64,000 bases of DNA from Patescibacteria group bacterium (GCA_041653215.1 JBAZFW010000002.1:8990-72989), one strand, 5' to 3'. Positions 14,983-16,161 are shown, numbered from the stretch's first letter. Program-made: numbers and translations. The notes: generated by a model not told the origin, from the sequence alone.

Positions 14983-16161
14983 ATGATTATGAAAATTTGT
15001 TTAATAAATAATTTATATAAACCATTTAACCGAGGCGGCGCGGAAAAGATAACCGAAACCATAGCGAACGGCTTAATTAAGGCCGGGCATGAAGTTTTTA
15101 TAATTACTACTAAACCGCATAAACAATTATCAATTAGCAATCAAGGATTAAAAATATATTATTTAAATAGTTTATATTACAATTTAAATAAGTTGCCGAA
15201 ATTTTTTAGATTTTTTTGGCAAACTTGGAACGCGTTTAATTTTGTAAATTATTTTAAGATAAAAGAAATTTTACAAAAAGAAAAATGCGACGTAGCTATT
15301 ACTAATAATTTAATGGGTTTAGGATTTTTAGCGCCGCTGGCGATTAAAAATTTAAGAATACACCCCCACACCTCGGAAAAAGGTGTGGGGGTAAAACATT
15401 TGCATATTGTGCATGACATCCAATTAATTCATCCTTCTGGTTTAATGTATTATGGCGAGGAGGGGATAATAGAAAGTTCTTTTGCTAAAATTTATTCTGG
15501 TCTTTGCCGTCGTCTATTTAATTCGCCGTCATCCGTTATTTTCCCATCAAATTGGCTGAAAGATTTATACATAAAAAGAAATTTTTTTGCTAAGTCAAAG
15601 ATTAATATTTTGCCTAATCCAGTTGAAGATACGCCGGAGCAGGCGAGAGAACAATCAGATAGTTTTAAATTTTTATTTTTAGGCCAAATTGAAAAACATA
15701 AAGGCATTTTTTTATTAATAGATGCTTTTAATAAAATTAAAGATAAATATCCGGACGTTAAATTAATTATAGTTGGCGATGGTTCTAAAATTAAGCAGGC
15801 GCAAGAAAAAGCGGCAAGTAATAATAATATTAATTTTTTAGGTTGGCCGGGCGATGAGGAGGCCGATAAATTGCTATTTTCAGCTAACTGCCTAATTTAC
15901 CCCTCGTTAGTGTACGAGAACTGTCCTAACGCCATTCAGAGGGCTATAAAGGCCAATTTACCGGTCTTAGCCAGCGATTTAGGCGGTATTCCTGAGTTAT
16001 TAAACAAAAACGCCGGCATATTATTTAAGCCAGCGGATGTTAATGATTTGGTAGAAAAAATGGAGTGGATGATTAAAAACAAAAATAGTTTTAGTAATTT
16101 AAAAGTTTCAGAATTTAAAGTTGAAGATTATATTAAAAAATTAGGGGAATTAATAATATGA
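14983..16161 (+). CDS. Glycosyltransferase family 4 (carries an in-frame GC-rich hairpin)
   Basis: GGAEKITETIANGL and a C-terminal GT4 core (PSLVYENCPNAIQRAIKANLPVLASDLGGIPE). Its stop overlaps the next ATG (ATGA). Confidence 0.8.
   Translation: MIMKICLINNLYKPFNRGGAEKITETIANGLIKAGHEVFIITTKPHKQLSISNQGLKIYYLNSLYYNLNKLPKFFRFFWQTWNAFNFVNYFKIKEILQKEKCDVAITNNLMGLGFLAPLAIKNLRIHPHTSEKGVGVKHLHIVHDIQLIHPSGLMYYGEEGIIESSFAKIYSGLCRRLFNSPSSVIFPSNWLKDLYIKRNFFAKSKINILPNPVEDTPEQAREQSDSFKFLFLGQIEKHKGIFLLIDAFNKIKDKYPDVKLIIVGDGSKIKQAQEKAASNNNINFLGWPGDEEADKLLFSANCLIYPSLVYENCPNAIQRAIKANLPVLASDLGGIPELLNKNAGILFKPADVNDLVEKMEWMIKNKNSFSNLKVSEFKVEDYIKKLGELII
15362..15392. repeat. Perfect 11-bp-stem hairpin acccccacacc-tcggaaaaa-ggtgtgggggt inside the CDS
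   Basis: A perfect inverted repeat, strongly GC-rich against the local background. It is translated as HPHTSEKGVGV. The same arms recur at 29932-29992 and, with compensatory changes, at 46481-46510. Confidence 0.8.

Follow-up and report, generated by a model that had tools for sequence, protein, structure and literature searches.

Short GC-rich hairpins in genes of a Patescibacteria genome as probable miniature copies of an element encoding a GIY-YIG nuclease

How does one GC-rich hairpin come to lie in three unrelated contexts within a single stretch of DNA, two of them protein-coding genes whose reading frame is preserved? The stretch in question, 64,000 nucleotides of a Patescibacteria group bacterium (GCA_041653215.1, JBAZFW010000002.1:8990-72989) and hereafter called the window, carries the hairpin inside a GT4 gene, inside tgt and directly after greA. 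A reading made from the sequence alone had pointed out these three hairpins and grouped them as one family; both their positions and the grouping have held up, and the family is now known to number about 23 copies genome-wide. The window copies are insertions flanked by short direct duplications, and the arms of the family are identical to the terminal repeats of an element encoding a nuclease. The sequence-only reading had overlooked both the TAAA duplications and this identity. The hairpins are probably gene-less miniature copies, comparable to MITEs (transposable elements of the miniature inverted-repeat kind), of a small Patescibacteria mobile element that encodes a GIY-YIG nuclease.

Hairpin insertions and their target duplications

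The GT4 hairpin consists of a left arm ACCCCCACACC (15362-15372) and a right arm GGTGTGGGGGT (15382-15392), and is in frame within the open reading frame (ORF) 14983..16161. The tgt hairpin, in frame within the ORF 29621..30823, has a left arm ACCCCCGCACC (29932-29942) and an outer right arm (29982-29992) with the same sequence as the right arm in GT4, GGTGTGGGGGT. These two tgt arms had been recognised from the sequence alone, but an inner one had been missed: GTGCGGGGG (29952-29960), a right arm 21 nt before the outer one, is the perfect pairing partner of the left arm. The tgt element is a three-armed copy. The greA hairpin, ACCCATACACC (46481-46491) with GGTGTATGGGT (46500-46510), starts one base past the greA stop codon. 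Across the window the arm word has seven matches with at most two mismatches, compared with a mean of 1.8 in shuffled sequences, and seven or more matches were reached in 0 of 100 shuffles.

All three sites are empty in G007, the closest relative, whose flanking sequences are 91-96% identical. The GT4 site reads TTTAAAAA-TAAA-ATATTTG when empty (in G004; likewise empty in G007, G005 and G001) and TTTAAGAA-TACA-(29 nt)-TAAA-ACATTTG when filled. For tgt the corresponding sequences are CA-TAAA-AACGG (G007) and CA-TAAA-(59 nt)-TGAA-AACGG, and for greA they are GTTAAA-TAAA-AATATAG and GTTAAA-TAAA-(28 nt)-TAAA-AATATAG. The greA hairpin is thus a 32-base insertion, missing in G007 (91% identical over 600 nt), G005, G008 and G009. 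Because the empty site has a single TAAA and the filled site has two, each insertion comprises the element and a second copy of the 4-base target. The resulting direct repeats are TACA/TAAA in GT4, TAAA/TGAA in tgt and TAAA/TAAA at greA, perfect only in the last. All three insertions postdate the split from G007. The features at the three sites are as follows.

15359..15362, no strand: left target copy in GT4; TACA, one change from TAAA, placed by DNA alignment with the empty sites of G007, G005, G004 and G001
15363..15391, plus strand: short-form element in GT4, 29 nt (CCCCCACACC, TCGGAAAAA, GGTGTGGGGG), in frame
15392..15395, no strand: right target copy in GT4; TAAA, placed by the same DNA alignment
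29929..29932, no strand: left target copy in tgt; TAAA, aligned to the G007 empty site CATAAAAACGG
29933..29991, plus strand: long-form element in tgt, 59 nt, in frame; left arm 29933-29942, inner right arm 29952-29960, spacer, outer right arm 29982-29991
29992..29995, no strand: right target copy in tgt; TGAA, one change from TAAA, from the alignment with the G007 empty site
46478..46481, no strand: left target copy at greA; TAAA, whose bases 1-3 are the greA stop codon
46482..46509, no strand: short-form element directly after greA, 28 nt (CCCATACACC, AAAATTTT, GGTGTATGGG)
46510..46513, no strand: right target copy at greA; TAAA, a perfect duplication
46530..46558, plus strand: probable greA intrinsic terminator, ATAAGCTT, loop, AAGCTTAT, then T7; outside the element

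Element and duplication together add 33 nt to GT4 and 63 nt to tgt. The predicted RNA folds of the GT4 and greA elements have energies of -23.9 kcal/mol (z = -5.1) and -21.5 kcal/mol, respectively.

The window belongs to the assembly (G000) of an ultra-small bacterium, 1.03 Mb in 50 contigs, with 34% G+C and 96% completeness. The sequence-only reading had proposed a genome-wide search, and a scan of the whole assembly revealed 20 paired arms, compared with 0-1 in ten first-order Markov simulations. The roughly 23 copies are 26-101 nt long and contain no coding gene, and their consensus is (T/A)TTA-CCCCCACAC-TTAA ... TTAA-GTGTGGGGG-TAAA. The arms, of 9-13 bp and of the type CCCCCACAC(TTAA), are perfectly complementary in most copies and form hairpins of -21 to -29 kcal/mol (z = -3 to -6). 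In the short forms, of 26-29 nt, 0-9 nt separate the two arms. Long forms of 59-101 nt retain part of an interior and frequently a third, inner arm; several run from a left arm through a loop, an inner right arm (~TTAAGCGTRGGG), TAAA and an AT-rich spacer to an outer right arm, or in mirror image, and the tgt copy shares this layout. Sequence changes in the arms occur in both arms of a copy, such as AT at positions 4-5 in greA and T at position 1 in several others. The sequence-only reading described the two greA substitutions as compensated in the partner arm; since the greA insertion is so recent, paired variants of this kind most likely came with the source copies and did not arise by compensation at the site itself.

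The flanks of the family follow the same rule as those of the window copies. Identical 4-mers flank 11-13 of the 23 copies (chance rate 0.0098 per pair), and in a further seven the two flanks differ at one position. The flanks are oriented as TAAA..TAAA or TTTA..TTTA, with 11 direct and 0 inverted pairs (p = 5e-4); none of these pairs is the inverted TTTA..TAAA expected of a longer palindrome. Copies in relatives have exact flanking repeats in 7 of 11 cases, and the same pattern is seen in distant genomes. Among these copies are rare duplications other than TAAA, namely TAGA/TAGA and CTTG/CTTG, which speak for a duplicated target and against a fixed end of the element. The family thus shows the anatomy of MITEs: it is multicopy, gene-less and shorter than 500 bp, with terminal inverted repeats, flanking direct repeats and three empty sites.

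The 13-nt arm was found in 6 of 400 sampled genomes of the phylum and a control word in 5 of 400. Since the arm is at background across these genomes, its expansion is lineage-specific. The distant genomes that hold hairpins have no common neighbour gene next to them, and the neighbours are housekeeping genes. Rfam matches were absent from the window and from four further hairpin loci.

In-frame copies and selection

Copies that are in frame and free of stop codons lie in seven genes of the assembly.

RecR: inserted peptide NPHTKFGVGV; a gap relative to PDB 3vdp
GT4: inserted peptide HPHTSEKGVGV (11 residues, 127-137); 14 orthologues without it
tgt: 21 residues inserted; 6 orthologues without them
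M24 peptidase: 24 residues inserted; open frame
PheT: inserted peptide LPAHQVWCEG; open frame
Second GT4: in-frame copy; open frame
Pilin-like leader gene: in-frame copy; open frame

The inserts in GT4, tgt and RecR were checked against orthologues or PDB homologues, and those in PheT, the M24 peptidase, the second GT4 and the pilin-like gene by their open frame. The sequence-only reading had held that the GT4 repeat adds HPHTSEKGVGV in frame, and had suggested an alignment with orthologues and a mapping onto a predicted structure. The alignment confirms an insertion of exactly these residues. They are missing from all 14 aligned orthologues, among them that of G007 (87% identical) and those of further genus members, and no hairpin-free orthologue has the same peptide. 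In the AlphaFold model of the GT4 protein (AF2; mean predicted local distance difference test score, pLDDT, 83), the segment forms a coil that links helix 117-126 to strand 138-142; pLDDT falls under 50 at residues 127-134, which marks a low-confidence loop. The 21-residue tgt segment is likewise missing from all six aligned orthologues, including G007 (96% identical), and maps between residues 110 and 115 of Thermotoga maritima TGT (PDB 2ash); the predicted tgt structure itself, with a pLDDT of 49, is too poor for use. The alignment of the M24 peptidase ends at the insert. The frames are intact in conserved genes, some of them likely essential, so the inserts are presumably translated as extra loop residues.

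The intragenic copies occupy three different frames or orientations and are therefore independent insertion events. ORFs contain 84% of TAAA/TTTA sites and 7 of the 23 copies (p = 1e-8), a deficit which implies that most genic insertions have been lost. A built-in length divisible by three was considered and rejected, as among the 16 intergenic copies the net length is a multiple of three in just 7. The copies found in frame are those that selection has spared, not a product of design. Copies lying in a frame in which ACT-TAA would be a stop carry an ACACC variant of the arm, a variant that also occurs in intergenic copies. Six intergenic copies are situated 1-5 bases from a stop codon; many copies fall exactly at gene ends because the TAAA target contains a TAA stop.

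Several further observations concern the surroundings of these genes. The GT4 orthologue of G027 (L024; alignment A1 columns 150-160), which belongs to another family, has a different 10-residue insert, KPASAKLRRG, in the same loop, and the L024 protein contains the segment CHAPLRSARND twice. Unrelated repeats seem to have landed in this loop more than once. Around the second GT4 of the glycan locus (C9 33126-35553), four family copies lie within 2.5 kb, at every gene boundary, and one of them is inside the gene. At L116, L125 and, in the assembly itself, C14 14755-14760 and C24 1320-1325, gene-bearing and gene-less elements end in ...GGGGG-TATATG, the ATG of which serves the downstream gene as start codon; these insertions lie inside operons, where the spacer from stop to start is very short.

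A probable gene-bearing parent and the proposed origin of the hairpins

Metagenome contigs were scanned for pairs of exact 13-nt arms spaced 245-275 nt apart. Three units of 290, 293 and 298 nt were found, where about 0.01 would be expected by chance according to our calculation, and the single ORF in each, 83-85 residues long, is a match to Pfam GIY-YIG (E ~1e-17). A protein-first search of 41 relatives gave a single close orthologue (82% identity), in G020, the relative with the most hairpins, and its gene lies inside a 296-nt unit bounded by exact arms. The clade of this nuclease comprises about 450 clusters at a threshold of roughly at least 70% identity, and the named clusters come from candidate phyla such as Moraniibacteriota, Gottesmanbacteria, Doudnabacteria and Falkowbacteria. 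At six further distinct loci of the clade, which are all those with DNA available, CCCCACAC-type repeats bound units of 284-299 nt. The repeat family thus bounds 7 of 7 protein-first loci, with one arm at each end. The full element measures 284-299 bp. Its terminal inverted repeats, of 9-13 bp, read CCCCCACAC and then TTAA, CTAA or CAA, and they enclose one gene, with no room for a second. Its sole product is a single-domain GIY-YIG nuclease of 83-86 residues, the nearest PDB entries to which are UPF0213 proteins (1zg2, E = 1e-7) and for which Pfam gives the generic GIY-YIG family only. The repeat variants of the units (ACACTTAA, ACACCTAA, ACACCAA and TCCCCACACTAA) match hairpin variants of the assembly, and each of the hairpin variants ACACTTAA, ACACCAA and TCCCCACACTAA is found on a gene-bearing element.

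Because their arms are identical to the ends of the nuclease units, the hairpins can be read as two element ends with the interior removed. In the proposed mechanism, loss of the interior would bring the two repeats to abut, so that a perfect GC-rich hairpin forms. It would be the nuclease that drives mobility and recognises the ends when they are paired, probably on single-stranded DNA in the manner of Ssn nucleases. Insertion would be at TAAA, or TTTA on the opposite strand, and each copy would end up with this tetranucleotide on either side. Most genic insertions would then be purged by selection, and those that persist would be the ones with a multiple of three bases, no stop in the frame used and a tolerant loop to occupy.

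Several points weigh against such an origin. To our knowledge, no GIY-YIG nuclease transposes, and we know of no chemistry by which one would give a 4-bp duplication. The assembly has no cognate nuclease, its best paralogues being 48-59% identical and in other contexts, and the cognate nuclease is found in just one of the six hairpin-bearing relatives' genomes (G020). Recent mobility in this genome would need a copy in the unassembled 4%, delivery from other strains or cells, or a paralogue with cross-activity. Two copies have flanks of inverted or non-matching type, TTCA/TAAA in the M24 gene and TTTA/TAAA in an ABC-transporter locus. Also compatible with the data is an element that has a terminal TAAA of its own and inserts alongside another, with no duplication.

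A bolder proposal, which we hold tentatively as a possibility, is that the 83-86-residue nuclease itself moves the element by recognising the stem of paired ends and cutting both at the base of the stem and at TAAA targets, which would make the 284-299-bp unit an autonomous transposon. The mover would then belong to an undescribed mechanistic class, neither DDE, HUH, serine, tyrosine nor Cas1. The unit would be among the smallest known transposons, and the 26-nt hairpins would be minimal substrates able to colonise essential Patescibacteria genes as translated loops. If so small a nuclease suffices, it would constitute a new compact transposition system and might provide sequence-specific tools for single-stranded DNA.

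The rival explanations differ in what they take the hairpins to be and in what is supposed to have moved them. It is very unlikely that they are host terminators, attenuators or mRNA stabilisers under selection and not mobile DNA. Their high stability, the position of several copies next to stop codons and the matched changes within a copy would all suit a host function; however, the window copies are missing from close relatives with otherwise nearly identical genes, and the position at stop codons follows from the TAAA target. The greA copy is instructive here, since the sequence-only reading had called it a terminator with arms of the same family. The arms do belong to the family, but the terminator label was rejected: the hairpin is lineage-specific, follows the stop codon and precedes a conserved terminator. 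On the greA strand the hairpin's tail, TAAAAATATA, has no T-run, and a scan with a terminator consensus flags the opposite strand only. Twenty bases downstream, ATAAGCTT-loop-AAGCTTAT followed by T7 (AAGCTT..AAGCTT+T7) is kept in G007, G005 and G008 and, as a stem followed by a T-tract, is built like the assembly's other terminator-like hairpins; this structure (46530-46558) is probably the real greA terminator, common to the genus. The apparent intrinsic terminators of the assembly, made up of an A-tract, a GC-rich stem and a T-tract, are unlike the family hairpins in form. Secondary co-option of some copies by the host is compatible with all of this.

Among mobile origins, an ordinary MITE moved in trans by a DDE-type transposase that shares its repeats, with the GIY-YIG gene as cargo or as a gene that has co-opted the ends, is unlikely, even though a 4-bp flanking duplication around terminal inverted repeats is what DDE cut-and-paste transposition classically leaves and we know of no strand-transfer activity in GIY-YIG enzymes. 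DDE_Tnp_1, the one transposase family of this type that was searched, has no match in G000, G005 or G007, and its sole match in G020 has no flanking arms. Furthermore, no pair of arms 0.5-3 kb apart in the assembly encloses a transposase-like gene, and the seven repeat-bounded protein-first loci leave no space for one. A somewhat better but still small probability attaches to spread by nuclease breaks at TAAA, repaired from an element-bearing template through TAAA microhomology in the manner of homing or gene conversion. GIY-YIG enzymes are classic homing endonucleases, flanks that are nearly always TAAA are expected from repair primed on the donor flanks, and the arms within each copy are perfectly complementary; the TAGA/TAGA and CTTG/CTTG flanks, on the other hand, are those expected from target duplication. 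Hairpins of the REP/REPIN type, mobilised by a RAYT (Y1 HUH) transposase, would also be dispersed, small in size and GC-rich, and the two arms of a copy would vary together. This origin is extremely improbable and has been largely refuted, because Y1_Tnp (PF01797) is missing from G000, G005, G007 and G020, that is, from four of the six hairpin-bearing genomes (it is present in 23 of 41 relatives), flanking direct repeats are present, 7 of 23 copies lie inside genes, and the conserved GTAG tag is missing.

If the hairpins are miniature copies of the nuclease-encoding element, as we consider probable, identical GC-rich hairpins in unrelated essential genes of an AT-rich reduced genome would be the footprint of one mobile element, and the tie to the nuclease would give a concrete candidate for how they spread. 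The 10-24 residues added to conserved proteins bear on annotation, alignments and phylogenies of uncultured bacteria.

The assembly has 17 GIY-YIG matches, of which about 15 are small stand-alone genes. A link between the hairpins and these genes was rejected, as the sequences on either side of the genes are tRNA duplications or palindromes of other families; the genes are weakly enriched near hairpins (p ~0.03). At C1 10390-10683, ACCCTGRTAAA inverted repeats bound a 293-nt unit whose product, a paralogous GIY-YIG nuclease, has 90 residues; the architecture is the same but the ends are different. This nuclease is 52-57% identical to the clade with CCCCCACAC repeats, and because its repeats differ, the arrangement fits a scheme in which each nuclease clade would have its own ends. 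Small GIY-YIG genes also lie beside or within tRNA genes (C3 55690-56100, C11 20084-20400, C33 5900-6600, C14 8900-9400 and C10 25000-25500), with part of the tRNA duplicated on either side, for example that of a tRNA with anticodon CCA at C3.

Other palindromes are present in the same genome. A second, larger family, with CGAAGCAATCTC... arms and ACCCTGTTAAAT-type termini, occurs in the window at 4370-4450, 23674-23713, 27472-27533 and 53857-53916 and at many genome sites, and GTCATTGCGAG...CGAAGCAATCTC repeats enclose several of the small GIY-YIG genes. A third, short family, CCCTCTCCTT-NNN-AAGGAGAGGG, is found at C4 33708-33730 (in uvrC), C5 720-742, C6 28894-28916, C32 704-726 and C39 5002-5024, mostly inside ORFs; the UvrC copy codes for ...PQPSPYKGEGE.... 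Two adjoining imperfect hairpins with related arms (CCCCCCACACTTAT.., ..TATAAGCGTGGGGG) lie within a longer inverted repeat at C3 64170-64256, and have no Rfam match.

Comparison with known systems

The full-text searches made in one collection of papers gave nothing relevant on MITEs or in-frame palindromes in Patescibacteria. Like REP/REPIN sequences and their RAYT genes, the family consists of short, dispersed, GC-rich hairpins related to a small nuclease-type gene bounded by its own repeats. It differs from them in the absence of the Y1 gene from four of the six hairpin-bearing genomes, in its flanking duplications and in its many intragenic copies. Short GC-rich palindromes that spread in an AT-rich genome, some of them inside protein-coding genes, are also represented by the mobile GC clusters of yeast mitochondria and the 'byp' elements of Magnusiomyces. 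Their setting is organellar and eukaryotic, and byps are skipped by the ribosome, whereas each intragenic copy described here keeps an open frame. We know of no nuclease-bearing parent of the GIY-YIG-unit kind for mitochondrial GC clusters or byps.

Bacterial MITEs such as Correia, ERIC, RUP and Chunjie are short, gene-less and multicopy, with inverted repeats, flanking direct repeats and a hairpin-forming transcript (PMC10969869). The present family resembles them in anatomy. However, its short forms are far smaller, being essentially two 13-bp repeats separated by 0-9 nt, and its parent is a GIY-YIG-only unit of about 290 bp, outside the recognised insertion-sequence families. In its behaviour, the family resembles the Rickettsia palindromic elements, which, in the account of Ogata et al. 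(2000) given in PMC10969869, are about 150 bp long, lie in frame in unrelated housekeeping genes and are read through as peptide. Both are in-frame palindromic inserts in protein-coding genes. The family is set apart from these elements by its length of 26-101 nt and its Patescibacteria host, and for it a target duplication and a gene-bearing parent have been identified.

The closest published system is Ssn/NTS of Neisseria. Ssn is a 94-residue GIY-YIG nuclease of single-stranded DNA; on either side of its gene stands a 28-nt hairpin repeat, NTS/SRM, that is also dispersed, and the authors likened the NTS-ssnA-NTS layout to an insertion sequence (Chenal et al., Nat Commun 2025, PMC11893778). 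In both systems, a GIY-YIG gene of about 90 residues is flanked by a repeat that is also dispersed as a hairpin of about 28 nt. However, the ends of the Ssn unit are complete hairpins, whereas each end of the Patescibacteria unit is one arm, so that the two ends form inverted repeats. The Patescibacteria family further differs from Ssn/NTS in its 4-bp TAAA duplications with proven empty sites, in its copies that lie in frame within genes, and in its host.

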